A DNA stretch of 64,000 nucleotides, taken from a virus. Shown in pieces: positions 6,706 to 60,137 of this stretch; position 1 is the stretch's first letter; each line of letters opens with the position of its first letter. The notes beneath the pieces are model-generated. The model did not search any database and was not told the DNA's origin. It worked only from the letters and a program-made list of their open reading frames with translations. The stretch lies in IMG/VR virus record IMGVR_UViG_3300037465_000316; one strand, given 5' to 3'. A program made the translations under genes and the position numbers.

Positions 6706-7867
6706 CGTCTAACGCCGCATAAAGTTTGTTTCTGGCCAGGCGCAAGCCAGATATGTGGCCCGGCCCCCAATCATCGGTGGTGGCAACAATCTCCCAGGTG
6801 TCACCATCATCCTCACTCTTAGCCACAAGGATTGGTGGTAATATATCTCCACCACCAGATGGAAAATTTTCTTCTATGGGAGTTGGCTTACCGTACCAGA
6901 TGAGTGCTCCATCTCGACTCGTGCGAACAAAGGTATCGCCATTGTCGAGTCGAATACATTGCCGAATCTGGCCTACTGATGAAATGCCCTGGATAACCAG
7001 ATCGGGATCATCCCACTGGTCTACATCATTGAACCAGTAGTAAATATAGGCTTCAGTCCCAATTTGCTTGTACCCAACCGGATATGGCATGTTGATTTCC
7101 CTGATTGGAACTATGGCCGAATCGGTGGGGGTACTCCAGTTGGTTAGATCGGTTGAGTATTGATAGGTAGAACCATTCAGACGCCAGTGAAAACGGCTAT
7201 CTGAAAAGAGGTACATCTCAGGATTAGAAACCGCCAGGCGTGTCAGGACTCCCCCATGCCAGCGGCCCAAAAAGATATCTGAGCCAAAGTAATCCTCTTC
7301 AAAGCGAGCCACTTCATTCCAGATAGAATCAAGAGAATGGTAGAGCCTGCCTCTACTGGTACGAATCAGCTCCGTATCTTCGTCGCTCTGGTCTGGCGAA
7401 AAAGGGGGATCGACTTCCGACCAGGTGATACCGTCACCAGAAACAAAGAGCCGATTGTTCGAAGGTATAGTACCCCCAAATATGCCCTGAATATAGAAGC
7501 CTATCCCAGTTTGATTAACGAGTAATCCGCTAGCCGTTCGATCAGCACCTTGCGTTACATCAATCACAACTGACCATGTTTCGAGATCAAGATCATATCG
7601 TTCAACCTTGATTTGTGATTCAAAGTCAGGCGCAACTGGCAAGCTTTGAACATACCAGATATAGATGGCATTGTTGAAAAAGACAATATCCTGACTGACC
7701 TGCCATGCTCCTCGATCATTATCAATATCGAGAAGCTCAGTCTGAGTCATAGTGCCTTCTTCGTAACGAATCACCTTCCAGGAAGTGCCATTAAGAATGT
7801 AAAAGTAAGTGCCATCGGTTGTGGCAAAGTCGGAAGGGAAGTCATTTCTAAAGTTCCAAGTAGCCAT
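6695..7867 (-). CDS. minor tail protein (propeller-like, Trp-rich repeats)
   Basis: Tail-module position; SGDGITWS and SEDDGDTWE Asp-box-like motifs. Confidence 0.6.
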   Translation of the reverse strand: MATWNFRNDFPSDFATTDGTYFYILNGTSWKVIRYEEGTMTQTELLDIDNDRGAWQVSQDIVFFNNAIYIWYVQSLPVAPDFESQIKVERYDLDLETWSVVIDVTQGADRTASGLLVNQTGIGFYIQGIFGGTIPSNNRLFVSGDGITWSEVDPPFSPDQSDEDTELIRTSRGRLYHSLDSIWNEVARFEEDYFGSDIFLGRWHGGVLTRLAVSNPEMYLFSDSRFHWRLNGSTYQYSTDLTNWSTPTDSAIVPIREINMPYPVGYKQIGTEAYIYYWFNDVDQWDDPDLVIQGISSVGQIRQCIRLDNGDTFVRTSRDGALIWYGKPTPIEENFPSGGGDILPPILVAKSEDDGDTWEIVATTDDWGPGHISGLRLARNKLYAALDDGN

Positions 7868-7869
7868 TA

Positions 7870-9054
7870 TTAAGGTATCTCCCAAAAATTGCCAGCAACA
7901 TGCCAAACATCAGTGCCTGGATCAGCGACTGGAAAAAGATAGCGTGTTCTATTTTCAACTTGGGTTAAGCTCGCCTCCCCAAAGTCAAATTCAACCAGGA
8001 ATGAGAAGGGGGCAAGTGTCCAACGTTGCAGCTTTAGCCGGTTGATACCACCTTTACGTTGCCATAAAGTCACGAACAAATATGTACTATTCATATCGGC
8101 CCAAATAGGCATAAGCTCATCCTGGCTATCAGATCGGAGAATACACTCCGTCCAGAGGCCGCCATTATCCAGAGTTAGCCACATCGAGCCGCGTTGAAGC
8201 GGCCCAGCCGCTTCCCATTTCCCCAGGGTAACAATAAAGCTGTCATTACCCAAGACCTGGATGAAGCTGACATCATCAATCGTAGGTGGAGTTCCATCAC
8301 CCCAGGTATTGGCGACCGCTCCAGGTGGTATATCAAGCCAATTGGCGCCGTTGCTCAGGGATTTTTGAACTATACCATCACTCACCCTCCAACGGGTGTA
8401 ACTGACCGGCGTAATATGGCCGTGGTGGTAATCATCCCCAAAAGTGATGATAGGCATGCCGAGCAGATACTCTGGATCAGTTACCCAGGCGGACAGTTCC
8501 CCCACCTCGACGCCAGAAATCGCTCGGACCGCAAAGTAGACACGGGGTGGCGTACCAGTATCGAAAGCGATTTGATGCTCGCGGTAACTGGTTTCGGCAA
8601 TTTGGGTTGGCCCAATTCCATCAGGGTTAGTAGCCCAGAATATCTGATAACTGGTAGCTCCGGGGACTTCTGACCAGCGAATTGTCCATTCGCTGTCCGG
8701 ACAGGATGCGTCGGCGCTCGCGTAGCTGGGAGGCTTGGGAATATTAGTTCCCTGGCCAGCCACATCAGTGCAATTGAATTGAGGCAGAATGTCGGTCAGA
8801 ATGAACCGCTGCTTATTCTGGCTGCCATCACGTTCATAACGGCTGCTGATCTTACAGAACAGACCGGGCCGAAGAGTTTTTCTATTTTGCCTGATAAGGT
8901 CGGGTATGAGTACGTCTCTCAGCACTCGCCGAGGCGAGCCGGCCAGCCTGACATGAACGTGATCGTCGAATACGGCTGTAATAACTCCGTCGTAAGCGTG
9001 GTCGCCGGGCGGCCGGGTGAGTTGGTCTACATACTCGAACTTTGTTCTCTTCAT
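7870..9054 (-). CDS. minor tail protein with fibronectin type III-like domain
   Basis: IRWSEVPGATSYQIFW...YFAVRAISG..GELS FN3 pattern; Asp-box-like motifs. Confidence 0.65.
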   Translation of the reverse strand: MKRTKFEYVDQLTRPPGDHAYDGVITAVFDDHVHVRLAGSPRRVLRDVLIPDLIRQNRKTLRPGLFCKISSRYERDGSQNKQRFILTDILPQFNCTDVAGQGTNIPKPPSYASADASCPDSEWTIRWSEVPGATSYQIFWATNPDGIGPTQIAETSYREHQIAFDTGTPPRVYFAVRAISGVEVGELSAWVTDPEYLLGMPIITFGDDYHHGHITPVSYTRWRVSDGIVQKSLSNGANWLDIPPGAVANTWGDGTPPTIDDVSFIQVLGNDSFIVTLGKWEAAGPLQRGSMWLTLDNGGLWTECILRSDSQDELMPIWADMNSTYLFVTLWQRKGGINRLKLQRWTLAPFSFLVEFDFGEASLTQVENRTRYLFPVADPGTDVWHVAGNFWEIP

Positions 9055-14332: not shown

Positions 14333-17300
14333 TTATTTATAACCCTGGTCGAAATCCTCGACGTGAAGAAACCCATCGGCCTTAAGTGCCTCGGTGTCAA
14401 CTACGATCTTTGCTCCAGATTGAAGAGCGTTAGCAATTACACTAAGAAGATTCAACATCTTTTCTTCAGTTTGGCTACCGCCCTCCTTCAGCACCAGTGC
14501 GCCATGAGAGGGAACGACATACTCTTCCTGGCCATGTTCTGACAACATGGCAAACGTTGGTCGGCGAGTTGATCCACCCTCGGCCATCATGTGAGCGCCG
14601 AACTGATTAGGCCGGGAAGACGACGAAGGACGATCAGGCATATTCCTGGAGATAGAGCCTAAGTGCTCGGCCATCTTGGCCAGCTCTCTATTCCACTCTT
14701 TTGTGGTAGCCAGGCCAAGCTGCTGAGTGGCATTATAAAGCTGCTGCGCTTTTTGAAGCTCGCGCTGCCAACCGAGCATTTTCTCATCCTCGACCGCTCG
14801 GGCCTTGGCCAGTTGGAGAGAATCTTTTTGGCGTTGAAGATTGGCCAGGGCCATTTCAAGCTCAAGATTATGGCGGTCTTCGAGCAATGGGGTTTCACGC
14901 TCGTAGTTTTCTAGCCAGGCTTTATGACGGTCAGACATGAGTTGCATCTGTTCTTGAGCGAAAGCTCTCTGCTTTTCCCGGTCTTGTTCCTGAAGCTCCA
15001 TAATCTGTTGCTGATATTCAAATGACCCCTCCATCTGCTCACGCTGCAAGGGTCGAGCGATTCCCCATCGCTCGCGGTCGGTAGCCAAATCTTCTTTTTG
15101 CCACTCGTACTGCTGTTCGGCCCTGCCTTCCTCTCTACTCATCTGGCTGCGTTGGAGGTTAGCCATAATGGTGGCTCGCTCCATTTGCCTTTTGATGTCC
15201 AGGCGCTGCCGGCCAGTGGCGTAGCGCAAAGACCGCTCCATATCTTCCTGCTGCCAGCCTTGCTGCATCTCAAAGGTTTCACGCTTATAGCCAAAGTCCT
15301 CGACCTGCCAGGCGCGAGTAGTTTCCATGCGGGATTCTTGCTTGTCGAAGTCCTGCTCACGCCACTGAGTTTGAAGATCAAAGAGCTTGAGGTTAATTTC
15401 CCAATTGCGCTTGAAATTAGTTTCTTGAAGCCTGGCGTATTCGTCTTGTTTGTCCAGATTCCACTGCATCTGTTGCATGGTCAGGTCATGTTGGCGGTTC
15501 TGGAAGCCGAAGTCTTTTTCTCGCATATCCATGCGGAGGTCCCAGAACTGTTCTTCCAGGTCGAGACGTTGTTCGGCCCAATCAATCTCCTGTTGCTGGT
15601 AGGAGAATGACCTGCTTAAATCCTCGCCTCGGCGCCGATCCTCAATCTGCCTCGTTTCACGCTCGTAACGAGGTCGCCAGGGTTCGGCCTGGTCCATCAG
15701 GGCTAACTCTGGCGTGCCGGCTGCGTAAGCCTGCTGGGAGTAATCATAGGCGTTCCCCAGGGTAATTTGGCTTAGATAGCGCTGGGCTTGGTACTGGCCC
15801 TTGTCACGCATGATCTGGTCGTAGGTCTTGGTAATGCCGGTGACATTTCCAAATAGGCCGGTTGCCTGAACGCTGCCACTGACTGCCTGCATTGAGGACA
15901 TCAGGCTTTCAATTTCGGAGATGCTTCTGACCCCGGAGAACATTTCTAGAATCTGGTTGGTCATCGGGCTGCGAAAGCCCACCCCGGCAGCTTTGGGTGC
16001 TTGACCGATGTACTTAACAAGCTGCTCAGGCTCCATGCCAGCATCGAGAGCCATTTGAGCGATGTTGGTTATATTCCGACGCGCCGGGCCGGAAATGATG
16101 TCTTTAGCCCCTGCTCCAGTAACCTCGGCATATTCCCGGATGATCTCACCGGCCTGTTCAACTGTGACCCGGCCACCCAACTCCCTTTTGAAATCCTCAC
16201 GGATGTTGGTGATCTCTTTAGCAAGGTCAGCCTCTCTTGTACCTCGCCTGGCTTCTAAAACGTCTCTTGATTCCCGATAGCGTTTTTCCTCCGGGGACAG
16301 GGCTTCTTCTATAGGTGGTTGGCCTGACCATCTACGGGCTATCTCTTCATTAGTTCCCTGACCCCACCCAAGCCAGCCCAGGGCAGTGCCGACTGGATTT
16401 CTCATGCCCATGACTTTGGCATTGACCAGTGTATCCAGCCCAAACCCGGCAACATCTTTATACATCCCAAAGGTATCGGCAACCGATTGACCAGAATAGT
16501 CTACCTGGTTGAACTGGCGTGGGTCAATACCCATCATCCGCATTAAGGGAGAGGCTGCGCCCATTGTGGCAAAGTCCATTATACCTCTAAGGGGGACGTT
16601 GTTCATAAAGCCATTCTGCCTGGCCAGCTCATACACTCCAGTCGCTGCTGCGCCGCCAATAAAAGGCGCGGCCAACAAGCCTGCTCCGCCCAGGGCGCTA
16701 CCGCTACCCAAAAGGCCAAGACCTTGTTGAGCGAGGCCAAACATACCGAATTTATTGGCCAGGAAGCCGGCTGTGCCGAGGCCAACGCCATAAGTGCCAA
16801 GTTTCCCCAGGGTAGGCGCAAACTGTTCGCTCTCGGCCATTTTCTGACCGATCCAGTCTACCCAGGGTGAGACAGCTTCGTTTACTCCCTTGCCCACGCC
16901 AATGGTAAAATCTCCCATTGTGGCACGCTGCCGCTGGACAGCGGCAATATCTGGCCCAACTCCACCCATGCCGAGAGCAAATTCCATTCGGCCTCGACTC
17001 ATCTCCGACGACAGGAATCCTTCGCGGGCCCGGGCGAGCGGCTGGCCTAGCATATAGTAACCCTGCGCCAACGCTTGTGATTCGTAAAACAAGCGTTGGG
17101 GATTGAACTGCCTGCCAAACCATCCCTGCATACGGTCCATAATGGTTTGAGGTTGTCTGCCCATCGAACGAGGCGTTCCACCTGCTGACGTGGATAGAAG
17201 CGCCTGAAGCTGGTCTATCTCAGCTTCTCTAGCCCCTAAAGCCTGCTTTCTGCCAGTGATACGCCGGTTATACTCATCCATCTGTTCGCGCACAGGTAAC

Positions 17301-20300
17301 TGCTCAGAGGCTGCAGCAAGCCTGGCCAGGCCAACCTTGCCTTGCTTCTGAGTTTCCAATGTGTCATACCGAGTCTTGAGGTTAGCGTAAATCTTCTCAT
17401 CCTCAGAGATTCGCTCCTTGATGGTTGCTGTCTGGTTCTTGAGAGCTTCGACATGCTCTTGAACCTCTGGCTTGAGCAGGCTGATTTGGTCTTTTAGCTC
17501 GGCCATCCGGGTAACGAGGGGATCAAGTTCCTTATGAATATTTTTGGCTTCACCCATCCGGCCCTGAGCTAGAGCCTCATCATACTGTCTCTTTCGAGGT
17601 ACATACTGCTGGTATAATTCTCGCCGCTGCTGTGCCAGGCCAGCGATTTCTGTGGCGGTAGCCTGTGCATCTACATCAATACCACGACGATCACGCCGGC
17701 CAGCATCCAGAGCCACCTGTCGAGAGATGATATCCATCATCCCACGATCTAACCTGGACAGGGTGAACCGATGCTTCTCGGCCTGTATATCCTCACGCCT
17801 TGCGCCAACCGGCCGGGCGCCGATCTCGGCAGCCATCTGGTAGACGCTGCCCTCGGTAGCACCTACCTTATTCGTCAGTGGATCCCGGAGAGGTTGAAGC
17901 AACCTCTCTGTGGAGCTATAAACACGGCGAGCGATTTGAGCCTCGACCGAAGTAACATCCTGGGGCCGGCCCTCCCTGAACTTCTGTAAAGCAGACTTCT
18001 CTCTTTCCGTGATGGTTTCATCTGCTTCTCTTTGCTGTAGGTTGAACCTGATTTGGGTCTTTCTGGCACGTTCATTTTGCTCAACTACGCTATGATAAGT
18101 GGCCGTGGCTGATTTCAGAACGTCGGTAAATTCGCCCTGAGTATCCTTGAGAGTGCCACCAGACTCATACAGAGTCTTGATCTGGGCAGCGTAATTCTCC
18201 ATTTCGCGGGCCAATATAGCATACTGTTGCTCCAGCTTGGAGGTAAAAGGTTTGGTAAATGATTTAATCTCAGTCTGTTTGTAGACTGTACTCCCAGCTC
18301 GAACCCCACCGCCGTTCACTTCGCCGGTTTCGAGATCAACATACTCTCTGCCACTGGTTTGCAGCTTCCGGCTAAGAGCATCTAACCCGGCTTTCATGGC
18401 CTGCACCTGGGGACTATCGAACTGCTCCATATATTTGCCCCTGGCGCGAGCACCGGCTTCGGTTGGGTCGTCCTTCATCATCCCAAGACGTTCAGCACGG
18501 TAATATTCCTCATCAATAATGTCACCCTCAGCGAAGTAACGCCTGCTCCCTTTATCTCTACCTCTCCCCAGGGTAGAAGGGTCAAATTCGAGAGTGCCCC
18601 GGCCACTAGCTTGGACTTTGCTTTCGGGGACAATGAACTCCTTGCCAGCTTCGCCACCAACCATCTTGCGACCATCGGTGGTGCGACCAAACACTGTTGG
18701 ACGCTCCATAATGCCACCCTCGGCAAATGGCAAAACCTCCTCTTCTTTCTTGGTAGGCTTCTGATAGGGCTTATCAAATTCCTCGACCATCTTGCGCTCT
18801 TCATAAGTGTAAGCAGGTTTGGGAGTTAGGTTTAATTCCTGAAATCTTCGACCCCTGGCCAGCTTCTGACCTGACTGCCGGAGGGGTGAGCCTGACCGGG
18901 CCACAGCGCCCATAATGCCGGAGATGACATCAAACTCGTCTTGAGTTCCTTCCATGACGCCGAGGCGAGGCGCAATCTTTTCAAGAAGATCGGCAATAGA
19001 CTGCTGATTTCTTATATTCAATTGTTGAGCGGCTTGAATCTCTGCTTCAGTCAGGTCTGACCGCTGTTTCCGCATGTTCGCCAGAACCTGAAGCTGTTTG
19101 GGTGATAATGTCCTACCGGCTGCTTCCTGCTGCTGTAGCGAGGCTCTAAAGAGCGCCCAACTATTGTTTCCATGAGAGGCTTGTACTTCGAGGAACTTGG
19201 CCCGGTCCTCGGCTGAAAGCAGGTCTATATTTTGAGTCAGGGCTTCATGGTATGCCTTAATAGCCGGGTCTTTATTAGTCTTGGTAAAGTCCGGGCTTGC
19301 GGCCTTGCTCTTGAAGTCTCGAATATTTTTCAGGACATTGGCATGAGCAAAGCCTTTGAGGATGATCGGCATAGCTCCGGCCCATTCACTATTAGCATCT
19401 CCCATTCTGGCCAGGATGGACTCCAGATATTCCTGGCCCTGTTTGAATGGGTCTTGACCGGGCTGAATCTCCGTGCCACGAGCCTTTGCCGTGAAAGGAT
19501 CAAACGAACTCAAGAAGTTGACCAGGTCGGACATTGGCTCACCCTCTTGATAGGCTTTCTGGTCTATCAGAGGCTGGAAGTATTTAGCTGAGGCTTTACC
19601 AACGGCTCGCTTATCTGCGAAGTGGGGAAGGATACGGCGGAACAGATTATAAACTGTGCCAGTCTGGGCTTTTAGGGCCTGAGATTCAGCCTGCGAGAAT
19701 TGTTCTATAGTCTTTTGGTCGTAAGCTCCCTTGAAGTCTCTGAACTTACTCTCCATAGCCCCCTGGCCCAACTTCTCACGGTAGTCCTGGTACTCACCGG
19801 CAGGGTGGTTTTCAGCCAGTGTACGAATAAGCCCCGGAGTGGATGTTTTGAAGAGGTTAGAAGCGGTCAGATTGCCTCCAACCCGACTAACCATTGTAGA
19901 TGCAGCCAGGCGAGCCCGGTCCGAATCGTTGTCACCTCCCTGGGCCATCGCGAAAAGAGGATTGAAGTAGGGTGTCCTGGATGTGCCAAAGTCAACAGCG
20001 GACCCACGCTCCTTCATTATCCCTGGGGAGACGACATTAAGGACGATTCCATACTGTCGAGTGGGATCAGCGACCGGCGTCCGGCCACCTGTAACACGCA
20101 GCTCACCGGCATTGGCCAGGCGGTCTATCTCGGCCCGGCCCTCATCGGTTCGCCAGTCCACACTAGCTTTGTGGAGGCCAAAGATATCTGAGATGGCCTT
20201 GTAGGAAAAGCCCACCTCGTTGCTTCCCAACTCATCGAGCGAAAGATATACGCTCTCAACACCCCGCTTGGTACGTTGACTGAGCCAGGCTTTACGAGCG

Positions 20301-22936
20301 CCCTCGCCCTCAAGGATGCCAGCCTGCCTTGTAGCCAGCTCCTTAAATTTCTCTTTGGCGGTCGCCATCTTGCCGAGGCCAATCTTGCGTTGTGGCCCAT
20401 CAGGGTTGTGGTAGGCCCTGGATATACCTGAGACAGCCATCCAGAGAGCTTCCTCAGCTTCCTGCTTGAGTGCGCTAATCTGTTTGTTAGTGTCTTTATC
20501 GAGGTAGCCAAATCGCTCCATTAAGGCAGGAGAAGAAATATATTGGTCGCCAAGTTTATAGATGACATCATCACCGAACATATCTTCCAGCGCCTTCGCG
20601 CCGGCAGTCCGGTTGAATTTACTCATCCAGTATTCTTGTTGGCCAAGTTGATCTTTCTTGATATTTTCGGTCAGGGATTCGAGGTTTTCTCTTTTCCTGG
20701 TAAATAGCTCGACGGCCATCTCCCGGTCCTGGAGCAGTTGTTCCAGGTCAACAATACGATTCTCCGGGCGAATGTCTATGCCCTGGTTGAGTAAAGACGC
20801 CTCGGCCAGAGCATTATAGGGCTGCCGGTACTTCTTGCCTTCCCTCGCCATTTTGTCCCAAAGCCGGCCCATACCCATATCACGGAAGATTTCACCTTCC
20901 TCGAAGCTAAAGGCCACTGATTGCTGATTGGATGACTCACGTACCAGCTTCGCCCCAAACGGCAGGAGGTATGCCTCCTGTTCCATGACGGCTCGATGCA
21001 GGTGCTCACCACCCGTTGTCTTGCCAATCGGCCGGTGAGATAGAATCCGGCCAGCTTTAGAGAGTTGGTGAAGCCGCGCCCCGGTCATTGTTTGGGCCAT
21101 CGGCACTCTAACCCTATGGGCGTCCAGGTACTTCTGATAAACCGCATTGGCTTTATCAAAGCCTTCTACGGTTGAAATACGGTCCGGTAATGGTTCGCCA
21201 TGAACGGACATCCAGTAGGATTCTAATTCTTCGCGGGGCATGAAATTGAGAACATTGGCCATAAACTGCCGCGAGCTAGATGGAGCGTTACCCATAAAAG
21301 CCACCGGAAAGCCGGTCTGCTCCCCGGAGAGCAACCCACGCATGTGACCGGCGAGAGCCTTTATGCCACCATATTTGAGCGCAGCGCCGCCACCGACTGA
21401 GGTTTCACGATGGCCTTGAAGCTGCATGTACTGGTCGGAATAACCCTCTTTGTTCATGGCCTCGGTGATGCTGTAGCCGGTGATAATGGCTCTCTGGAAG
21501 TTGTCAATGATGTCATGTCCTCCATGACCTTCGTAAGCGGTCAGTTTCTGACCCGGCCCCACCATCATCTCGGTAGACCGGGCGCCGGCAATAATCTGCT
21601 TCCGGGTATTTTTGAGCATAGCATCCCGCTGCCGGTTGAGTGAGGCCGAGCCAAGATTCATCTTTTTGAGCCGGGCCTCTTCCTGAAGCAAAGCTGGATC
21701 AGCCAGGCCGAGCTTTTTAATAATATGGCGTTCATCCATGCCACGAGGGATTTTGATACGATAATCCTCTGGCTTATCCTCAAAGCGTTCCATGATGTAT
21801 CTGGCGACTTTGGGATCAATAAAGCCCTGGCCTTCGGCCAGTGTATGGTGGGAGAAAAATAGTCCAGGGAGAGGAACGGCAGTATCGCCAAATTGCTGGC
21901 TGCCCCAAAGGAGATTAGCGCGAGCTTCCGGTAGAGGCTTGCCCGACCTCGCGCCAAAGGGGGAATATTCTCGCATGTGCAGCTTGGGGCGTTTGGCCGC
22001 AGCCTTCATGATTTTCTTGAGACCACCTCCCTCACCCAAATGAAGGAGATCGCCCTCCGAAATGTAGCCTGGGATTTGCTTCAGCGCCTCAAATGAGATG
22101 CGAGTGCCTTTAGCCGAAACCCCGGCCATTGCCTCCTCTACATCGCTGGGGACCGTTACACCTGGATCGTAATAGTCCCTGACCGAGCGAACTTCCTTGG
22201 TGCGTCCTGCCTCGCTGCGGTAGGCCAGGCTGGGGTCAATCATGTTCCAGCGTTTGGAGTCGGAGAAATTTAGCTCCTGGATAACAGACCGCTGACCTTG
22301 TGTGTCAAACTGCTTTTGCAGGGCCCCCATGATCATACCCTCAAGGTCAGGCAACTCGCGGTCAGTGTGTTTGGATTTAATGACGTGGGATGACCCAGAG
22401 CCAACCACGCCAACAGTTAGGTTGTTATCAACTACACCAATCTTGAAGGGTGGCCCAACGGGAGATTCCTGGCCATTTATGCGCTGCATGGGCCGGACGA
22501 TGACATGCCCGCCAAAAATATCAGGCTGGAACTCCTGCTTGACAAAGAATTGTTGCTTCAGGTTGGGATGTGGGTCAACCCTCTGTTTATTGTAACCTTT
22601 AGCAACCTTGAGAACCGTGTTGACCACGCGCATCAGGTTTTGGTTCTCAAGGTTGCCTTCCCGTTGAAGTGATTGGGTGGTATAACCACTTCTCTGAGCA
22701 GCAGTATAAGGGTCTTGCCGGTACTGCCTGGCTAAATGGGCTGGATAGCCCATATCTCGCTGGAGCGCCGGCGAGGCCATGAGTTGTTTCTGCTCACGGT
22801 CAATTTTTCTTAAATCCTGGGTAACATCTCCTAAAACACCGGCCATCTCCTGGCCAAGTGATTGGGATGGCGTTGGAACTGTACTCCCTTTGAACTGCTT
22901 ATATAGGTCTTGAAGATCGTCGGGTATGCTTGGCAT
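14333..22936 (-). CDS. tape measure protein with N-terminal RNA-polymerase-like (double-psi barrel) region
   Basis: Follows frameshifted chaperones; long coiled-coil with W/F periodicity; two AEGG..PT..GE.G.E..VP motifs; N-half carries EGQGFID, KYGGIKA, GRTP, GGDNDSD, QPLIDQK. Start placed at MPSIPDD. Confidence 0.85.
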   Translation of the reverse strand: MPSIPDDLQDLYKQFKGSTVPTPSQSLGQEMAGVLGDVTQDLRKIDREQKQLMASPALQRDMGYPAHLARQYRQDPYTAAQRSGYTTQSLQREGNLENQNLMRVVNTVLKVAKGYNKQRVDPHPNLKQQFFVKQEFQPDIFGGHVIVRPMQRINGQESPVGPPFKIGVVDNNLTVGVVGSGSSHVIKSKHTDRELPDLEGMIMGALQKQFDTQGQRSVIQELNFSDSKRWNMIDPSLAYRSEAGRTKEVRSVRDYYDPGVTVPSDVEEAMAGVSAKGTRISFEALKQIPGYISEGDLLHLGEGGGLKKIMKAAAKRPKLHMREYSPFGARSGKPLPEARANLLWGSQQFGDTAVPLPGLFFSHHTLAEGQGFIDPKVARYIMERFEDKPEDYRIKIPRGMDERHIIKKLGLADPALLQEEARLKKMNLGSASLNRQRDAMLKNTRKQIIAGARSTEMMVGPGQKLTAYEGHGGHDIIDNFQRAIITGYSITEAMNKEGYSDQYMQLQGHRETSVGGGAALKYGGIKALAGHMRGLLSGEQTGFPVAFMGNAPSSSRQFMANVLNFMPREELESYWMSVHGEPLPDRISTVEGFDKANAVYQKYLDAHRVRVPMAQTMTGARLHQLSKAGRILSHRPIGKTTGGEHLHRAVMEQEAYLLPFGAKLVRESSNQQSVAFSFEEGEIFRDMGMGRLWDKMAREGKKYRQPYNALAEASLLNQGIDIRPENRIVDLEQLLQDREMAVELFTRKRENLESLTENIKKDQLGQQEYWMSKFNRTAGAKALEDMFGDDVIYKLGDQYISSPALMERFGYLDKDTNKQISALKQEAEEALWMAVSGISRAYHNPDGPQRKIGLGKMATAKEKFKELATRQAGILEGEGARKAWLSQRTKRGVESVYLSLDELGSNEVGFSYKAISDIFGLHKASVDWRTDEGRAEIDRLANAGELRVTGGRTPVADPTRQYGIVLNVVSPGIMKERGSAVDFGTSRTPYFNPLFAMAQGGDNDSDRARLAASTMVSRVGGNLTASNLFKTSTPGLIRTLAENHPAGEYQDYREKLGQGAMESKFRDFKGAYDQKTIEQFSQAESQALKAQTGTVYNLFRRILPHFADKRAVGKASAKYFQPLIDQKAYQEGEPMSDLVNFLSSFDPFTAKARGTEIQPGQDPFKQGQEYLESILARMGDANSEWAGAMPIILKGFAHANVLKNIRDFKSKAASPDFTKTNKDPAIKAYHEALTQNIDLLSAEDRAKFLEVQASHGNNSWALFRASLQQQEAAGRTLSPKQLQVLANMRKQRSDLTEAEIQAAQQLNIRNQQSIADLLEKIAPRLGVMEGTQDEFDVISGIMGAVARSGSPLRQSGQKLARGRRFQELNLTPKPAYTYEERKMVEEFDKPYQKPTKKEEEVLPFAEGGIMERPTVFGRTTDGRKMVGGEAGKEFIVPESKVQASGRGTLEFDPSTLGRGRDKGSRRYFAEGDIIDEEYYRAERLGMMKDDPTEAGARARGKYMEQFDSPQVQAMKAGLDALSRKLQTSGREYVDLETGEVNGGGVRAGSTVYKQTEIKSFTKPFTSKLEQQYAILAREMENYAAQIKTLYESGGTLKDTQGEFTDVLKSATATYHSVVEQNERARKTQIRFNLQQREADETITEREKSALQKFREGRPQDVTSVEAQIARRVYSSTERLLQPLRDPLTNKVGATEGSVYQMAAEIGARPVGARREDIQAEKHRFTLSRLDRGMMDIISRQVALDAGRRDRRGIDVDAQATATEIAGLAQQRRELYQQYVPRKRQYDEALAQGRMGEAKNIHKELDPLVTRMAELKDQISLLKPEVQEHVEALKNQTATIKERISEDEKIYANLKTRYDTLETQKQGKVGLARLAAASEQLPVREQMDEYNRRITGRKQALGAREAEIDQLQALLSTSAGGTPRSMGRQPQTIMDRMQGWFGRQFNPQRLFYESQALAQGYYMLGQPLARAREGFLSSEMSRGRMEFALGMGGVGPDIAAVQRQRATMGDFTIGVGKGVNEAVSPWVDWIGQKMAESEQFAPTLGKLGTYGVGLGTAGFLANKFGMFGLAQQGLGLLGSGSALGGAGLLAAPFIGGAAATGVYELARQNGFMNNVPLRGIMDFATMGAASPLMRMMGIDPRQFNQVDYSGQSVADTFGMYKDVAGFGLDTLVNAKVMGMRNPVGTALGWLGWGQGTNEEIARRWSGQPPIEEALSPEEKRYRESRDVLEARRGTREADLAKEITNIREDFKRELGGRVTVEQAGEIIREYAEVTGAGAKDIISGPARRNITNIAQMALDAGMEPEQLVKYIGQAPKAAGVGFRSPMTNQILEMFSGVRSISEIESLMSSMQAVSGSVQATGLFGNVTGITKTYDQIMRDKGQYQAQRYLSQITLGNAYDYSQQAYAAGTPELALMDQAEPWRPRYERETRQIEDRRRGEDLSRSFSYQQQEIDWAEQRLDLEEQFWDLRMDMREKDFGFQNRQHDLTMQQMQWNLDKQDEYARLQETNFKRNWEINLKLFDLQTQWREQDFDKQESRMETTRAWQVEDFGYKRETFEMQQGWQQEDMERSLRYATGRQRLDIKRQMERATIMANLQRSQMSREEGRAEQQYEWQKEDLATDRERWGIARPLQREQMEGSFEYQQQIMELQEQDREKQRAFAQEQMQLMSDRHKAWLENYERETPLLEDRHNLELEMALANLQRQKDSLQLAKARAVEDEKMLGWQRELQKAQQLYNATQQLGLATTKEWNRELAKMAEHLGSISRNMPDRPSSSSRPNQFGAHMMAEGGSTRRPTFAMLSEHGQEEYVVPSHGALVLKEGGSQTEEKMLNLLSVIANALQSGAKIVVDTEALKADGFLHVEDFDQGYK

Positions 22937-23312
22937 GTTCTTCCTGTAGCCTCTTATTTGCTTCAGCGACCCTATTTTTCTCACGTTGCCACTTTATTCG
23001 CTCATCATCAATGATATCGAAGCAAAGCATGAGAATATGAGGCTGGTCGAGCAGTCCACCCGCGAGCGGGCTGACTCTATATCGCTCAAACTCAGCCTTG
23101 AGGGTCACTTCATAAGGCGCAGGGAGAATCTTTTTCGGCTTAGGCGCTTCCAGAAGGCCGGCGCGTTGTTTGACAATTTGGAGAGGGTCGTAGGGTTGTT
23201 CTTCTTCGTCCGGCGTTCTAAGAAACTCTCTAATTTGTTCAGCGAACTCTTTTAGAGCTTCGTTGAAGAGGGTTGCGATTCGGTAGCCGGCTCGCCGGCA
23301 GCGTCTTCCCCC
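22899..23312 (-). CDS. tail assembly chaperone extension (gpT-like) reached by -1 frameshift
   Basis: -1 frame open 23327 to 22899 with no good start; PLAGGLLDQP motif; G GGG GAA at 23312-23306. Confidence 0.75.
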   Translation of the reverse strand, partial: GGRRCRRAGYRIATLFNEALKEFAEQIREFLRTPDEEEQPYDPLQIVKQRAGLLEAPKPKKILPAPYEVTLKAEFERYRVSPLAGGLLDQPHILMLCFDIIDDERIKWQREKNRVAEANKRLQEEHAKHTRRSSRPI

Positions 23313-23764
23313 TCCGTTAGAGCTTCTTCATCTTCATTTTCATCTGAAACGCCGAACCCCCAAGTGGGGTTGAGTAAGAGGCATTTATTATAGATAGCCT
23401 CTGCCCATTCGGGAGGTAGTTGGCCCCACTTTTCCATGAACTGATCGAAGGTCAGCTGGATTTTTCCATTCTTAAGTGGAAATAAGGGAGTCTTGCCATC
23501 GAACATGGTTATATTACACGAGGTCATAGTTAGCCAGGTGTCTACAGCCATGCGCTTTGCAAATGGTGTAAGTTCTTCAGCGACCGAGAAACCATCCTCC
23601 CCCTCCCACTTCCGGGTGACCGGCCGGGAGAGCATCTCTTGACGTTTCAGCGCATCGCCCTGGGTAGCCTGGCGAATTGTAACGATAAGAGGGTCTTCTT
23701 TGGAAAGGCTGGGACCCTCAATAATCTTGAACTCTCTTTGAAGTGGAACTATTAAACTTGGCAT
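23252..23764 (-). CDS. tail assembly chaperone (gpG-like)
   Basis: Upstream of the TMP; GGAG RBS before ATG 23764. The longer TTG start lies inside the promoter. Confidence 0.8.
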   Translation of the reverse strand: MPSLIVPLQREFKIIEGPSLSKEDPLIVTIRQATQGDALKRQEMLSRPVTRKWEGEDGFSVAEELTPFAKRMAVDTWLTMTSCNITMFDGKTPLFPLKNGKIQLTFDQFMEKWGQLPPEWAEAIYNKCLLLNPTWGFGVSDENEDEEALTEGEDAAGEPATESQPSSTKL

Positions 23765-23807
23765 CAGGGAATCTCCTTGATTAACTAATTTTTGATAGAT
23801 TGGCTCA

Positions 23808-23839
23808 AGGCTATCAAAAAATCGAGGCAAACTCAATAG
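23808..23839 (-). promoter_or_regulatory. late-class promoter for chaperone-TMP
   Basis: CTATTGAGTTTG-...; TTGAGT-17 nt-TAGCCT. Confidence 0.7.
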
Positions 23840-24602: not shown

Positions 24603-25688
24603 TTAGGCTACGGGCATCGGGTAAGATGCTTGAGCATTACTCAGGATAAACTTGAAATAGTCCTCGGCCAGCGTTGAATCTGCCTCGACAGCAACCCCGG
24701 TTACGTTCATCATTAGTAATTCATCTCCACTGAGCTGGATAGGGTCATATCGCCAATCAACCTTTGGAGCTTCGATACGAAACGTCCAGGGGAATGGGAC
24801 TGCATCACTGATATCGCAGGGTGATTCAACCTCAAGCTGTAAATCTGTATATTCACAACATGGTCGGAAGTCCAGAGTGGCCGGATCGCCGCCATTGATG
24901 ATGAACCTATATAAGTCAGGGTTATCCCACTTATAGGTAAACTCGATGGTCAGACTACGCTGCCGAGTAGTGAAATCCTCCGGGAAGTAACTCCCAATTA
25001 CCCGCTCTTCCTGGGGAGTGGACGTGTTGTTATTTAGCGTCACCCTGGCGTTTGTAGCTGGCAGAGGCACACCCCCACCAAAGACCCAATTGGGCAGTAG
25101 TAGACCACTACCCTTCATCACCATAGGCACAGAGTCGTAATTCTCCGTAACATCTGCCCAGGCGAATAGATCGGGGGCGTTATCGAATAAGAACTCCCTG
25201 CCGAGAATTTGAAGATCAGTAGATAGTGGTCCCACTTGGGGGTAGTTAATAACCATCGTCGGGATAATACAGTCTTTTCCCGTTTCGCCGAGGTCCTTAG
25301 TAGTGTCCCGGCCGGGAATCACCCGCCGAAATCCCATGAACGGGATAAAGATAGCATTACCCGGTTTTTGGGTAAATGTGTGGGTGAAGCCAGTAGTCGC
25401 ATTGGCGACACTGGAGCAGTTACCCGCAGCTCCGAGCAAAAGCCAGCCAAAGTCTCCCTCTAGCCGGGGCTGAAGGCTAACCCGGCCTCCGAACCCGGCC
25501 CCGGTCTTATATGCCCCTGTTGGGTTATTAATCCCCGAAATCTCCGGGGGCGCTACTTCTTTCTGAACATCTGGCCCGTATCCGGCAAACAAGGCTTTGT
25601 GGCGATACCAGGTCCCTACCGGCTGGCCCTTCTCACCATTCGCCTGTATCCCGAATCCGAACAGTCCTGCTTGTGCTGTTACAGACAT
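24603..25688 (-). CDS. major tail tube protein
   Basis: 361 aa, beta-rich, between neck genes and chaperones; FTHTFTQ motif. Confidence 0.75.
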   Translation of the reverse strand: MSVTAQAGLFGFGIQANGEKGQPVGTWYRHKALFAGYGPDVQKEVAPPEISGINNPTGAYKTGAGFGGRVSLQPRLEGDFGWLLLGAAGNCSSVANATTGFTHTFTQKPGNAIFIPFMGFRRVIPGRDTTKDLGETGKDCIIPTMVINYPQVGPLSTDLQILGREFLFDNAPDLFAWADVTENYDSVPMVMKGSGLLLPNWVFGGGVPLPATNARVTLNNNTSTPQEERVIGSYFPEDFTTRQRSLTIEFTYKWDNPDLYRFIINGGDPATLDFRPCCEYTDLQLEVESPCDISDAVPFPWTFRIEAPKVDWRYDPIQLSGDELLMMNVTGVAVEADSTLAEDYFKFILSNAQASYPMPVA

Positions 25689-48401: not shown

Positions 48402-51206
48402 ATGAGAAAGACAACAATCTTCCGCTACGTACTTCAAGCAGCCGGACTAGCCCCGGAGATGCGCGGCCACCGGCACATGAGCGAAGACGCCGCCAATTTC
48501 ACCACGAAGAATCAACCTGGCCTGACCTTTCTGAAGGTTGATGTGAAAAGCAATTTCAAGAGCCTCGACGCTGAGAATATGCTTACAACCTGGCCGGTGC
48601 TGGACAAAGAAGGCAAGAATACCGGCGCCGAGGCGATCTACTGCGGGCACGGAAGTTCGGTTAAGCACGGCTATGTTTATTTCCTGGTCGTTCGGAGAGA
48701 CGGTCAGGAGATAGTTGAGGCCACAGACTACCTGGTGAAAGCCTGGGAGATGTTAGGTATCAGCGAGAACCTCTACCGTTTCGGTGCTCACCTGATGCCC
48801 AAGACAATGGCTTCTCTAACCATGAACGGAGCTAAGGTGATGGGTGTGCCTGATGGCTCAATCCTGTACTGCTCGGATGGTAAGAAGTCCTTGTTCCGAG
48901 ATGGGCACGGCGTCATCAATAAGAGCCTGAAAGCCCCCCTGATGAAGCAGAAGCCGCGAGTGTTTCAGTTCAAGGATGGCAGTCTATTGACCCCGACAGT
49001 CTTTAGCCAACTTGACTTCAGTCAGGCGGTTGCCGATGAACTTCTAGAGGGCTTCGAGAAGCGCAGCAAGGCGCTGACTTCTGAATCCTACTTCAAGTTC
49101 GTGCAGGCCAGCCGCTTTGGAAACGAGCGGGGTGAAAACCTGATAGGTAAATCCATCTTTGCTGATGTGGCGATGATGGAAGAAGTTATGGCCGAGATTG
49201 CCCGAAGGGGAATCAACGGCGAGGTTCAGAACTTACTCGCCCGACACCCAGCCTTCTCACCACGCCTGGCCAAAGGGTTGGCGAGAGATATGTATAAGGT
49301 GGCGACCACCGGAGGACTGAAAGGTACGTACTACAAGATAGCCCCCTGCCCAAGTCTCCCTGGGGAAACCGAGCCGGTTATCATTCGCAAATCCAACAAA
49401 ACCGGCAAGGCCCTGGTCATTCGCTACCCGGTGAGCGACAGCAAATCAGTGCTGGCCGCAACCTCGAAAGAGGACCGACTAGACTTCAAGGGCGAGATGG
49501 TGCAGCTCCGGGTTACGACGAAGAATCTAACCTGGTCGGCCAAAGGCACAGCCACCTTCCGAAACCTCGAAAGCGCGTACATCATCACCCCGGACGGAGA
49601 GCGAATCGAAGTACCATCTGACGCAGCCTACATTTGGGGCAGCGAGGATCAGAAAATGCCCTGCAAACCCAACCTGATGGAAGTCATCACCGAGGATATT
49701 GAGGTGATGATAACCGAATGGTATCGGCCGGCAGATGTGGCTCTAATGCCCTGTGGCTATGTGGATGGCGTTTATCACGAAGAGCTTGACCACGCCCACA
49801 GCCAGAACGCCGATTTTGATGGCGATGGGGTTGTAGTCAGTTGGGTAGGCAATCGGCCAAATCTCTGGCAAGCCTTCAAAGCCCTCAACGGGACCGAGTT
49901 GGCTGTGGCCAAGATGAAGAAGTCAAAGACGCCTTTGGTCAAGTTCAGCAACCTCAACGAGTTCCAGGCCAACAGCACGACCGTCTATCAAATGATCGGG
50001 CGCTCGATTGCGGATTACGTTGGCCAGGTCACAAACCTGATGCAGCGTTATCTGCTCTACAGCCCTGCCCAGCGCGAAAAACTGGCACAGGCCAGGTTCA
50101 ATATGAGCCGGCTCGAACTTGAGGCTGAGTTTGCTTTCTACCTACAACTGGCCGTTGACCTGTTCAAGTTCAACGATAGCGAGCTGGTGGAAAAGCTGGC
50201 CCGGTTCATTGCTCACGTCGAGGCCGTTTTCAGGCTGGAAGCCTCGTTGTTCAATGAGGGCGATGGCCTGGGCAAAATCAAAATGGGACACGTCGGCAAA
50301 GACAAGAACCAGGCTAACCTGGGGAAAGGTTATATGTGGTTCACAAACCACATTCCAGAGGTAGATGAGTTTGCCGGTTGCGATGGATTCATTCCCTCTC
50401 TGATGCGCCAGACGCTGGCCAGGGACGAAAGCGGCAATTTCGTCCTATGGGGTGCTGAGATTGCCAACAAGGGAATCTTGCCCAATGCCACGTACCAGGT
50501 GTGGGTAGCACCGACAAACCAGCGCGCCCTGAAGCTAGCCGGTGAGATCAAAGAACGCTACGGCAAGGAGGCTTACGGCCTCGCTGTTGGCTACGAGGTC
50601 GAATCAGGCAACGGTGAAGATGTGCTAAAGAGTGAGTGGCTGGACTTCATCACCGAGTTTCGGGCTGAGATAGTCGAGCAGGCCAGGCGTGAGCGTATCA
50701 GCCTGCAAGACCTGTTCGACGCTCTATGGTTTAGCTATACGAATAAACCTGACCAGCAAGGCGACCAATCAATGCCGATCCTGCTCCTACCGGAACAGTT
50801 CTTCGGGATGGTCGAGCGACTGATCAAGGACGAGTTCGGCCAGTGGGTTCATCCTGACCTGAAAGGCAAACTCATTGATAAAACCCAGTGGCTGCCGCTG
50901 CTAAATATCTCGCAGCAGTGGGTCAACTATCCAGAGTCGCCATTGGTCAAGGGGTTGGACGGTAAGGCCATCGTGGTTGAAGCCCAATGCCACGAAGTGG
51001 TTCGTTCAGGCCAGAAGAGAGTAGTCAGTGTGGTAATTCCAGAGGATGATGCTTACGAGGCTCATCTGAGAGAAGCCAAAGGGTTGCCGCTGGGCAGCCT
51101 GGGCTACACATTAACCACCTACGAGGGTAAGTTCAAGGCTATGTTCAGATGGACGCCGGGAAAAACCAACGGCGGCACAATGAATGTGGCTCTAATTCCA
51201 GCTTAA
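48402..51206 (+). CDS. single-subunit double-psi beta-barrel RNA polymerase (YonO / cellular RdRP-like)
   Basis: DGHGVI (48900), IRYP (49422), QLR..KG (49503-49547), NADFDGD (49806-49826), VGQVTN, QLAVDLFK. Confidence 0.9.
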   Translation: MRKTTIFRYVLQAAGLAPEMRGHRHMSEDAANFTTKNQPGLTFLKVDVKSNFKSLDAENMLTTWPVLDKEGKNTGAEAIYCGHGSSVKHGYVYFLVVRRDGQEIVEATDYLVKAWEMLGISENLYRFGAHLMPKTMASLTMNGAKVMGVPDGSILYCSDGKKSLFRDGHGVINKSLKAPLMKQKPRVFQFKDGSLLTPTVFSQLDFSQAVADELLEGFEKRSKALTSESYFKFVQASRFGNERGENLIGKSIFADVAMMEEVMAEIARRGINGEVQNLLARHPAFSPRLAKGLARDMYKVATTGGLKGTYYKIAPCPSLPGETEPVIIRKSNKTGKALVIRYPVSDSKSVLAATSKEDRLDFKGEMVQLRVTTKNLTWSAKGTATFRNLESAYIITPDGERIEVPSDAAYIWGSEDQKMPCKPNLMEVITEDIEVMITEWYRPADVALMPCGYVDGVYHEELDHAHSQNADFDGDGVVVSWVGNRPNLWQAFKALNGTELAVAKMKKSKTPLVKFSNLNEFQANSTTVYQMIGRSIADYVGQVTNLMQRYLLYSPAQREKLAQARFNMSRLELEAEFAFYLQLAVDLFKFNDSELVEKLARFIAHVEAVFRLEASLFNEGDGLGKIKMGHVGKDKNQANLGKGYMWFTNHIPEVDEFAGCDGFIPSLMRQTLARDESGNFVLWGAEIANKGILPNATYQVWVAPTNQRALKLAGEIKERYGKEAYGLAVGYEVESGNGEDVLKSEWLDFITEFRAEIVEQARRERISLQDLFDALWFSYTNKPDQQGDQSMPILLLPEQFFGMVERLIKDEFGQWVHPDLKGKLIDKTQWLPLLNISQQWVNYPESPLVKGLDGKAIVVEAQCHEVVRSGQKRVVSVVIPEDDAYEAHLREAKGLPLGSLGYTLTTYEGKFKAMFRWTPGKTNGGTMNVALIPA

Positions 51207-59587: not shown

Positions 59588-60137
59588 TGTTTTATACGAC
59601 AAAAACAAAAAGCCGCGTTACATCCTACCCTGCGCGGCCTACGCCAAGAACAGGGCAGGAGATACTGTCTACTTCGAGATAGTCTCGAACGCAGTCCAGC
59701 CGGTCAATGCGTTTTGGGCTAACATTCGCTGTAACTGGCGAACGACCCAACTCACACCTACCTATATCGCCATCTACGACCAGGACCATAATAAGGAAGT
59801 TCTCTCCATTGTACCCAGGGAGAAACGCCATTACGGCGCTAAGAATGGTCACCACTTCATGATGCATGAAGGGTTCGACAAGCTGCACCTGGAATATCTT
59901 CTGGGGGGCAGCCCCACCGAACCGGCGCCGATGTTTGAAACGGCGCTGCGCCAGTATGTTGAAGCCCCATTTCTCTCAGCCTGGACACAAACACTATGGG
60001 AGGCTGGCATTAACCAGAAACTAATCACAGAACTCTCAGCAGTAGGTATGACCGGCTGGAGATTAAGCAAAATCGCTAAAGGTTGGCAGGAACTCATCAT
60101 CAATCTTAGAAATCAAGGAGAATTACAACATGGCTAG
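59568..60137 (+). CDS. hypothetical protein
   Basis: 189-aa coupled ORF. Confidence 0.65.
   Translation: MSKHLYSVLYDKNKKPRYILPCAAYAKNRAGDTVYFEIVSNAVQPVNAFWANIRCNWRTTQLTPTYIAIYDQDHNKEVLSIVPREKRHYGAKNGHHFMMHEGFDKLHLEYLLGGSPTEPAPMFETALRQYVEAPFLSAWTQTLWEAGINQKLITELSAVGMTGWRLSKIAKGWQELIINLRNQGELQHG

Follow-up and report, generated by a model that had tools for sequence, protein, structure and literature searches.

A tape measure protein with a probable RNA polymerase-type barrel in its N-terminal half

The stretch of viral DNA analyzed here (IMG/VR virus record IMGVR_UViG_3300037465_000316; 64,000 nucleotides, hereafter the window) encodes a giant tail tape measure protein (TMP), and raises the question of whether the N-terminal half of this protein is an RNA polymerase (RNAP). 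A preliminary description, made from the letters of the DNA, had noticed motifs of double-psi beta-barrel (DPBB) RNAPs in this half and had stated that no TMP-RNAP fusion was known. Such a fusion does have an experimentally shown precedent, gp96 of Thermus phage P23-45 (Chaban et al. 2024, Nat Commun 15:317; PMC10770324). Our analysis indicates that the N half of the window TMP very probably contains an RNAP-type catalytic barrel, here called DPBB-A. We also consider it probable, with somewhat less assurance, that the module is a working, TMP-delivered two-barrel RNAP; that it would be active, choose templates and promoters, be carried in the virion, and be ejected is inferred from P23-45. A second barrel, DPBB-B, is suggested by its motifs.

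All six polymerase-like motifs, together with two AEGG motifs described below, were located by script in one open reading frame (ORF), exactly where the preliminary description had placed them. The features of the N half are as follows.

14333-22984, minus strand: giant tail tape measure ORF, 2883 amino acids (aa) counted from GTG 22984
19385-22597, minus strand: conserved N-terminal module, aa ~130-1200, candidate two-barrel RNAP; colinear with relatives at ~26% identity
21185-21877, minus strand: candidate DPBB-B region, aa ~370-600, recognized at motif level only
21815-21835, minus strand: EGQGFID, aa 384-390
21356-21376, minus strand: KYGGIKA, aa 537-543
21275-21304, minus strand: VAFMGNAPSS, block at aa ~561-570
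20087-21184, minus strand: long, mostly helical putative connector between the barrel regions, aa ~601-966; predicted local distance difference test score (pLDDT) of its helices 60-79 in the first structure model
19835-20272, minus strand: DPBB-A catalytic barrel, aa ~905-1050; AlphaFold model m351b2196747e
20075-20083, minus strand: R968-T-P970, within GRTP (aa 967-970); R968 codon at 20081-20083
aa 1008-1022, minus strand: NPLFAMAQGGDNDSD, with DNDSD (D1018-D1022) at 19919-19933
19646-19666, minus strand: QTGTVYN, bridge-helix-like, aa 1107-1113 (TGTVYN, aa 1108-1113, at 19646-19663); QIGQxYN in relatives
19556-19579, minus strand: FQPLIDQK, trigger-loop-like, aa 1136-1143; YQNPLDKK in relatives

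The fold of the catalytic region was modelled with AlphaFold. A first model of aa 130-1320 (1191 aa; six sequences) gave only helical noise in Foldseek, VIA, and Atlas searches and serves as a negative control. A second model of aa 890-1200, built from a nine-sequence alignment, had a pLDDT of 60.4 and a predicted template modelling score of 0.51; pLDDT was 88-94 at residues 30-77, 74-89 at residues 90-120, and ~80 at residues 140-170. This model contained a double-psi barrel. Two aligners were used to compare it with five structure libraries, and active-site domains of RNAP largest subunits were the best matches in all five.

In the Foldseek search of the PDB, the best 50 matches were without exception chains of RNAP beta' or of the phage AR9 non-virion RNAP (best E value 1.8e-3; probability 0.54-1.00, mostly at least 0.9), with 138-165 columns where the barrel alone was aligned. 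VIA-align was run against 48,161 representative chains with no Foldseek pre-filter. Its best nine matches were all RNAP largest subunits, with Z scores of 6.1-7.9, a range to be read with the caution that Z below 8 is common in VIA. Plastid PEP beta' (7.9), phage AR9 RNAP (7.8), and Mycobacterium tuberculosis beta' 420-576 (7.2) came first, followed by Pol I, Pol V, phiKZ non-virion RNAP, Pol IV, and archaeal RNAP (6.1-6.5). P23-45 gp96 scored 4.7 (8H2N) and 4.6 (8H2M, residues 606-794). In a second VIA search, 566 chains had Z of at least 5, and the best 50 of these 566 were all beta' or phage RNAPs (Z 7.4-8.1). The named BFVD matches with probability above 0.3 were RNAPs, the lower-probability rows including unrelated proteins, and all named matches among the AFDB fold clusters were RNAPs. 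In the ESM Atlas shape search, which aligned up to 202 residues, 10/10 rows carried RNAP Pfam families (PF00623 RNA_pol_Rpb1_2 in eight; one row was unnamed).

Residues 16-176 of the model aligned to Escherichia coli beta' 346-502, and linear interpolation of the aligned ranges would place D1018-D1022 at about beta' D460-D464. The preliminary description had named, as observations that would count against it, a structure model free of double-psi barrels or one in which the DNDSD and RTP motifs lay apart. For DPBB-A neither was the case: both motifs fell within one modelled barrel domain, with 47 residues separating R968-T-P970 from D1018-N-D-S-D1022, and the [RK]xP plus DxDxD loop combination was found in motif and modelled barrel alike. 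When aa 339-619 were predicted in complex with aa 890-1200, the score was 0.00 and the partner had pLDDT below 50, an outcome that weighs in neither direction. The preliminary description is supported in its core, an RNAP-type double-psi-barrel module in the N half: DPBB-A is seen in the model and in five libraries, and DPBB-B at motif level only.

A double-psi barrel may also belong to proteins other than polymerases. TMPs often bear wall-degrading domains, and the barrel could be of a cell-wall enzyme type (RlpA, MltA, 3D-domain, or expansin-like), with which the TMP could breach peptidoglycan, or resemble an AAA+ N-domain. Generic double-psi barrels (the p97 N domain, designed DPBBs, and formate dehydrogenase) did appear in the VIA list with Z of ~4.5-6.0. 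However, no RlpA, MltA, or expansin was among the matches listed from the five libraries, and RNAPs ranked first everywhere and were aligned over 120-150 residues, compared with 80-90 for the generic barrels. The DxDxD loop also lies at the RNAP location and is followed by bridge-helix- and trigger-loop-like motifs. We therefore regard a non-polymerase barrel as quite improbable. RNAP matches are not the default outcome of these searches, because the unusable first model yielded helical noise only. The fold match carries weight because the libraries were unanimous, the RNAP span exceeded that of generic barrels, and the first model gave such a contrasting result.

We next considered how far the motifs themselves exceed chance. 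In shuffles of the sequence, DxDxD arose in 18-32%, and the published filter [RK]xPx{20,100}DxDxD was satisfied in 7-12%. Judged by sequence, the motifs in one protein are no better than chance, and their conservation in the family exceeds chance; because the motifs alone are weak in shuffles, it is this block conservation across the family that matters.

Relatives were sought with HMMER by scanning 1.84 billion representative proteins exhaustively. The true relatives were P0003 (2618 aa), P0004 (3008 aa), P0005 (3433 aa), and the fragments P0006 and P0008. Two further candidates, P0007 and P0009, were discarded as translations of tandem repeats. A genome scan added prophage copies in metagenome-assembled genomes (MAGs) of Anaerolineales and Caldilineaceae, comprising ORFs of 3566 and 3495 aa, one truncated copy, and one decayed copy. 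No further relatives were found in 400 more genomes sampled from that phylum or in the remainder of the order's 56 genomes. None were found by scans of IMG/VR or, with the N half and the C half as queries in megablast and tblastn, in 50,697 phage records; in a word-index search the TMP matched only itself. The decayed copy lies on contig C4 of Anaerolineales MAG G002 (807.7-811.2 kb; L015-L021), consists of the N module with many in-frame stops, and is probably a prophage remnant. The same MAG also carries the intact 3495-aa copy.

Family members range from 2618 to 3566 aa, and the relatives are colinear with the window protein along the N module, across the internal AEGG junction, and through the C half, sharing ~26% identity with it in the N module. 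All six motifs fall within blocks conserved in the family. In the alignment of six full-length members, QGGDNDSD was the only invariant run longer than 3 residues. Invariant positions in four full-length members were E384, G385, Q386, and D390; K537, G540, and K542; G966, R968, and P970; Q1107, G1109, Y1112, and N1113; and Q1137 and D1141. P568 and S569 were invariant as well, and N566 was no longer so after three prophage-derived sequences were added.

This pattern bears on the reading that the module descends from an RNAP and no longer polymerises, acting as extra tape length, a plug, or a DNA- or RNA-binding ejection protein. It would fit such a role that DPBB-B was unseen in the structure models, that several motif positions of the window protein differ from those usual in the family (FNP for FHP, GT for GQ, and EGQGF for EGQMW), and that the whole 5002-aa P23-45 protein is described as scaling with tail length (PMC10770324). 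Against it, the aspartate triad with its flanks makes up the most conserved 8 residues in ~2900 aa of proteins that are 26% identical, and the R-x-P, K..G.K, GQ, and D..K positions are invariant or nearly so. Such conservation is what is expected of a working active site, not of a spacer, and we consider a non-polymerising module unlikely.

The N-termini of the relatives carry HTH_23 / Sigma70_r4 domains at or above Pfam cut-offs (31-35 bits). These helix-turn-helix (HTH), sigma-70 region 4-like domains were located at aa 42-72 of P0003, at aa 140-186 of P0005, and at the N-termini of L006 and L007. For a polymerase that recognizes specific promoters, a DNA-reading domain at the head of a "tape measure" would be a sensible arrangement.

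The motifs were then compared with the structure-based alignments in the supplement of Chaban et al. 2024 (gp96, gp64, QDE-1, crAss gp66, and Thermus RNAP) and with host-type beta' and beta taken from Anaerolineales genomes. The correspondences run in canonical order. In candidate DPBB-B, the loop EGQGFID (EGQMWxD in relatives) stands opposite EGGNYED of beta, DGVGRMS of QDE-1, and GDGATG/GDGIVG of gp96/gp64, and the lysine strand K537-Y-G-G-I-K542 stands opposite RFGSAKG of QDE-1, GRHGNKG of beta, and GLKG of gp96. In the second half of this barrel, VAFMGNAPSS of the window protein corresponds to IQIILNPLGVPARMN of beta; the relatives have DADFILNKPSD, DADMVLNRPSD, DADLVLNKPSD, and DYDLIMNKPSD, with DFILNKPSD in P0003. 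Taken together, the candidate DPBB-B motifs resemble EGGNYED, GNKG, and ILNPLGVPARMN of beta, with the GxK and D..(I/V/M)(L/M/V)(N/A)KPSD block resembling GNKG and IQIILNPLGVPAR.

In DPBB-A, the first half, ESVYLS..NEVGFSYKAISDIF, corresponds to RSVIV..QCGLPKGMALELF of beta', and the strand LRVTGGRTP (GGRNP in relatives) corresponds to FTFRNP of gp96 and LLNRAPTLH of beta'. The catalytic loop FNPLFAMAQGGDNDSD aligns with HPLVCSAFNADFDGD of beta', the H/N-to-first-Asp spacing being 10 residues in the family, in beta', and in gp96 (VNQEYAKSTGVDFDGD). GGDNDSD itself compares with GGDYDGD of QDE-1 and GVDFDGD of gp96. Farther along, QTGTVYN (QIGQxYN in relatives) compares with AAGQLTTSF of gp96 and WAGQVHAH of gp64, and PLIDQK (NPLDKK in relatives) with NAPVDNAK of gp66, LVDQSK of QDE-1, and DRKRD of gp96/gp64. 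The published alignments support the assignment of these last two motifs to the bridge-helix "AGQ" and trigger-loop "hDxxK" elements, to which they would correspond. The motif correspondences are a matter of consistency, not proof, because they were found after looking.

Some of these likenesses could instead point to an active two-barrel enzyme with another job, such as an RNA-dependent or primer-making polymerase or a PolD-like DNA polymerase. GGDxDxD and K-x-G-x-x-K are nearest to RNA-dependent RNA polymerases (RdRPs) of the QDE-1 type, and the ribose-reading Asn of beta' (N458) is replaced by Gly. In addition, ESM Atlas language-model features of the homologous fragment P0006 matched PF05183 RdRP clusters (score 0.92; 179/256 features shared); the 1400-aa N half gave no usable Atlas feature match. 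On the other hand, gp96, a proven DNA-dependent RNAP, likewise has Gly at this position, the best structural matches were DNA-dependent RNAPs with no PolD among the VIA matches listed, and the sigma-r4-like HTH domains of the relatives suit promoter DNA. An enzyme with another job is accordingly improbable, slightly more so than a module that no longer polymerises.

Several results weigh against a polymerase in the window TMP. No RNAP match was obtained for the whole TMP or its fragments in Pfam, PHROGs, or the PDB (phmmer or family profile), and in Pfam none appeared even at E = 10. By hhalign, the family profiles against gp96 1-1200 and Anaerolineales beta' and beta gave non-significant E values of 0.1-0.4. 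The first model was unusable (pLDDT 45), with DPBB-B and barrel packing not visible. The nine-row alignment behind the second model was shallow, its DNDSD loop had pLDDT below 50, and the structural scores (E ~1e-3 to 1e-2; Z up to 8.1) were individually middling. No HTH was detected in the first 140 residues of the window TMP, its own aa 890-1200 gave no usable Atlas feature match, and the Q of the bridge-helix "GQ" motif is Thr. The Gly at the beta' N458 position belongs here too, although gp96 and QDE-1 share it.

The hhalign comparison with Anaerolineales beta' placed HPLVCSAFNADFDGDQMAV on the DNDSD block, with an E value of only 0.37, and neither Pfam nor hhalign assigned the module to PF00623 at sequence level. 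BLASTP of the TMP N half against the free-standing RNAP candidate of the window and against the TMP's own C half gave no meaningful match beyond the shared AEGG motif. In the second model, the bridge-helix/trigger-loop part had pLDDT of 30-69, and the Atlas shape match reached model residue 294. The P23-45 authors likewise report non-significance of the hhalign type for their own enzymes (PMC10770324).

The shuffle frequencies, the shallow alignment, and the middling E values are what would be seen if motifs had collected by chance in a very long protein and a modelling artefact had done the rest. Motif conservation across the family, the agreement of five libraries and two aligners, and the noise from the unusable first model all speak against this, and we judge it very improbable.

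How would such a polymerase work? The closest guide is gp96. The N-terminal ~1200 residues of this 5002-aa TMP form a two-barrel RNAP (PDB 8H2M and 8H2N) with DFDGD at 779-783 and a minimal active fragment of 327-1124; the module is present in virions within the full-length protein and transcribes pre-early genes, including that of the non-virion RNAP gp64 (PDB 8F72) (PMC10770324). In the literature, no TMP-RNAP fusion was found beyond P23-45 and its close Thermus-phage relatives.

On this model, the first ~1200 residues of the window TMP would be a single-chain two-barrel RNAP fused to a complete TMP. DPBB-B, at ~aa 370-600, would carry the EGQ..D loop and the lysines K537 and K542. After a helical connector of ~360 aa, DPBB-A (~aa 905-1050) would contribute R968-x-P970 and a Mg-binding triad of D1018, D1020, and D1022, followed by the bridge-helix-like QTGTVYN and the trigger-loop-like PLIDQK. 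The TMP proper would begin beyond a TMP-end-type motif at aa 1421-1454, which would mark the junction. Extending the analogy to gp96, we would expect the full protein to be assembled within the tail tube and, on infection, to be ejected into the envelope of the cell, where the polymerase module would transcribe the first-entering genes independently of host RNAP. A free-standing NADFDGD protein (48402-51206) would then be a candidate second, non-virion polymerase.

In gp96 and, as a candidate, in the window protein, an N-terminal polymerase module of the two-barrel type is fused to the giant TMP of a long-tailed siphophage. Common to the two are the pattern R-N/T-P ... G-x-D-x-D-x-D, in which Gly occupies the position of beta' N458, and motifs like the "GQ" of the bridge helix and the "D-x-K" of the trigger loop. 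Residues 606-794 of gp96 are those aligned with the DPBB-A model (Z 4.6-4.7), and each genome has a second, free-standing DxDxD protein. The differences are considerable. No significant sequence similarity to gp96 was detected by tblastn of phage records, BLASTP, or hhalign; the loop reads DNDSD, not DFDGD; the protein has 2883 aa compared with 5002 aa; and it has an internal TMP-end motif at the junction, as well as HTH domains in its relatives. The barrels are separated by ~360 aa, compared with a gp96 connector of ~70-75 aa (605-679), mostly disordered (613-679). The short connector makes the gp96 enzyme "flat and clampless" (PMC10770324), a shape that may not apply to the window enzyme because its inter-barrel connector is ~360 aa long. 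Unlike the Thermus phage, the relatives are prophages of Anaerolineales/Caldilineaceae MAGs (Chloroflexota). The window encodes an integrase, and the phage is therefore temperate; no integrase is annotated in the available portion of the P23-45 record. With activity and virion presence taken by analogy, the window family would work like gp96 but lies outside the gp96 sequence family.

The bacterial/plastid beta' active-site domain (PF00623) gave the best structural matches (Z 7.2-8.1), and beta (PF00562) provides the counterpart of the second barrel. Unlike beta' and beta, the window module runs from B to A within one chain; it has neither N458 nor the canonical NADFDGD, and shows no recognizable clamp, lid, or other beta' domains. 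The proposed single-chain two-barrel layout would be shared with the phage/plasmid/RdRP clade, comprising QDE-1 and eukaryotic RdRPs (PF05183), gp66 of crAss-like phi14:2 (6VR4), and YonO-type enzymes, and was compared with QDE-1 and gp66 only. QDE-1 has the same GGDxDxD and K-x-G-x-x-K (RFGSAKG) patterns, and gp66, also a giant virion-delivered protein, has P-L/V-D-x-x-K. QDE-1 and gp66 were absent from the best structural matches listed, which included only maize RDR2 (Z 4.2) from this clade, and gp66, from a podovirus-like phage, serves as a capsid/ejection protein and not as a TMP. The N4 virion RNAP (gp50), a giant virion protein injected for early-gene transcription, resembles the role proposed for the window TMP. 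However, it is a T7-like right-hand polymerase and neither a double-psi barrel nor a TMP.

The junction between the module and the TMP proper is marked by a duplicated motif.

18623-18724, minus strand: internal TMP-end-type motif AEGG..PT..GE.G.E..VP, aa 1421-1454, at the junction of polymerase module and TMP proper
14483-14584, minus strand: C-terminal AEGG motif copy, aa 2801-2834

AEGG itself starts at aa 1421 (18713-18724) and aa 2801 (14573-14584). The internal copy matched phrog_38258 (function unknown; E 5e-5), phrog_991 (E 0.003), and phrog_1535 (E 0.08), the last two being tape-measure families. The C-terminal copy matched PHROG tape-measure families weakly in the window (E 0.04-0.1) and at E 9e-7 in the relative P0005, and these families match the motif near their own C-termini. 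BLASTP aligned the internal copy to 5/5 relatives compared (32-47% identity in short motif-centred alignments), with the motif itself 39-47% identical in relatives. In P0005 the motif clearly occurs twice, at aa 1759 and, as the C-terminal copy, at aa 3346. It is plausible that the polymerase was joined onto an already complete TMP, because there are two copies of the TMP-end motif and each site is conserved; the fusion is already present in every relative known. A role for the internal copy as a processing site or a tail-tip docking site is conceivable. A wider proposal, which we put forward as a tentative possibility, is that the TMP-borne RNAPs of these temperate Chloroflexota phages form a second lineage, either fused independently or diverged to an extreme degree, with the sigma-region-4-like HTH domains of the relatives as promoter readers and the duplicated motif marking the point at which an ejection protein, formerly separate, was joined to the TMP.

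Under this wider proposal, the tail-injected polymerase would be a recurrent solution, not a Thermus-phage oddity, and would be found also in phages that have to settle on either lysis or lysogeny. The same layout in a family of unrelated sequence from a different bacterial phylum would show that TMP-coupled DNA ejection with self-sufficient early transcription is commoner than thought. It would also add a very divergent branch to two-barrel polymerase evolution, combining a beta'-like DPBB-A, a QDE-1-like GGDxDxD, and HTH fusions in relatives. QGGDNDSD in giant TMPs could serve as an annotation signature where Pfam and PHROG profiles stay blank. How a module of ~1200 residues (~1400 if counted as far as the junction motif), its barrels separated by a long connector, would pass through the tail tube is a puzzle. 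The finding is a notable widening of a discovery made very recently, taking it into a family and a phylum unrelated to the first, and introduces no new principle.

The identity of the 2883-aa ORF as a TMP was assessed from its surroundings and from its C half.

14336-18604, minus strand: TMP proper, aa 1461-2883
16640-16867, minus strand: Gly-rich hydrophobic segment of the TMP proper, aa ~2040-2115
24603-25688, minus strand: tail tube protein (Pfam Phage_tube_2, E 1.2e-10)
23252-23836, minus strand: chaperone-like ORF, the second of two small ORFs after the tube
22899-23327, minus strand: open frame in the -1 frame relative to the chaperone-like ORF, overlapping its end

The whole protein matched no Pfam or PHROG family. 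Upstream of it the gene order is terminase-like, SPP1-type portal, Phage_tube_2 tube, and two small ORFs; a 140-aa ORF and a 1278-aa tail protein are located downstream, and the loci of the homologues P0003 and P0004 have the window's gene order. The ORF is long, lies between chaperones and distal tail genes, and has a Gly-rich hydrophobic segment and a conserved C-terminal motif; the TMP proper also contains a W/Q/E/R-rich repeat region (aa ~2400-2750). Synteny, length, the Gly-rich hydrophobic segment, and the C-terminal motif support its assignment as a predicted tape measure protein. The region 22899-23836 looks like a G/GT-type programmed frameshift of a tail assembly chaperone, the classical layout upstream of TMP genes. 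Candidate TMP starts are GTG 22984, ATG 22936, and ATG 22846 (M47; database gene call). The -1 frame of the chaperone covers the 5' end of the TMP ORF, and ATG 22936, with AGGAAG four bases upstream, is therefore probably the start in preference to GTG 22984. At locus L002, which encodes P0003, a gene with TIR and pentapeptide-repeat domains (7853-9040, minus strand) lies on the opposite strand between tail tube and TMP and is a defence-like insertion inside the tail module.

We finally examined the candidate partner enzyme.

48402-51206, plus strand: 934-aa ORF with literal NADFDGD at 49806-49826, VGQVTN, and YLQLAVDLFK

VGQVTN and YLQLAVDLFK, which the preliminary description had set beside the last two TMP motifs, were located by script in this protein, and the bridge-helix-like VGQVTN and trigger-loop-like LAVDLFK are comparable to AGQV and AVDRKRD of gp64. 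The 934-aa protein had one relative, at 60% identity (P0011, locus L005), and no Pfam, PHROG, or PDB sequence match; comparison with gp64 by hhalign and BLASTP was non-significant. No homologue was found in the three Anaerolineales genomes holding TMP relatives. On its motifs, the protein is a candidate non-virion RNAP partner.

A quick repeat search of 33.6-64 kb for a promoter motif of the virion RNAP returned an operator-like palindrome and a CCCTGGGG element, none assignable to the TMP enzyme. The palindrome, GGTGATTAAATAATCACC, occurs in four copies (34846, 34935, 52242, and 58967), 2/4 of them beside TATAAT-like sequence, and these look like putative operators of one repressor. At the end of the window, a DUF6094 methyltransferase-like ORF (60130-63999, plus strand) is interrupted by Hint/intein splicing and LAGLIDADG homing-endonuclease domains and extends past the window end.

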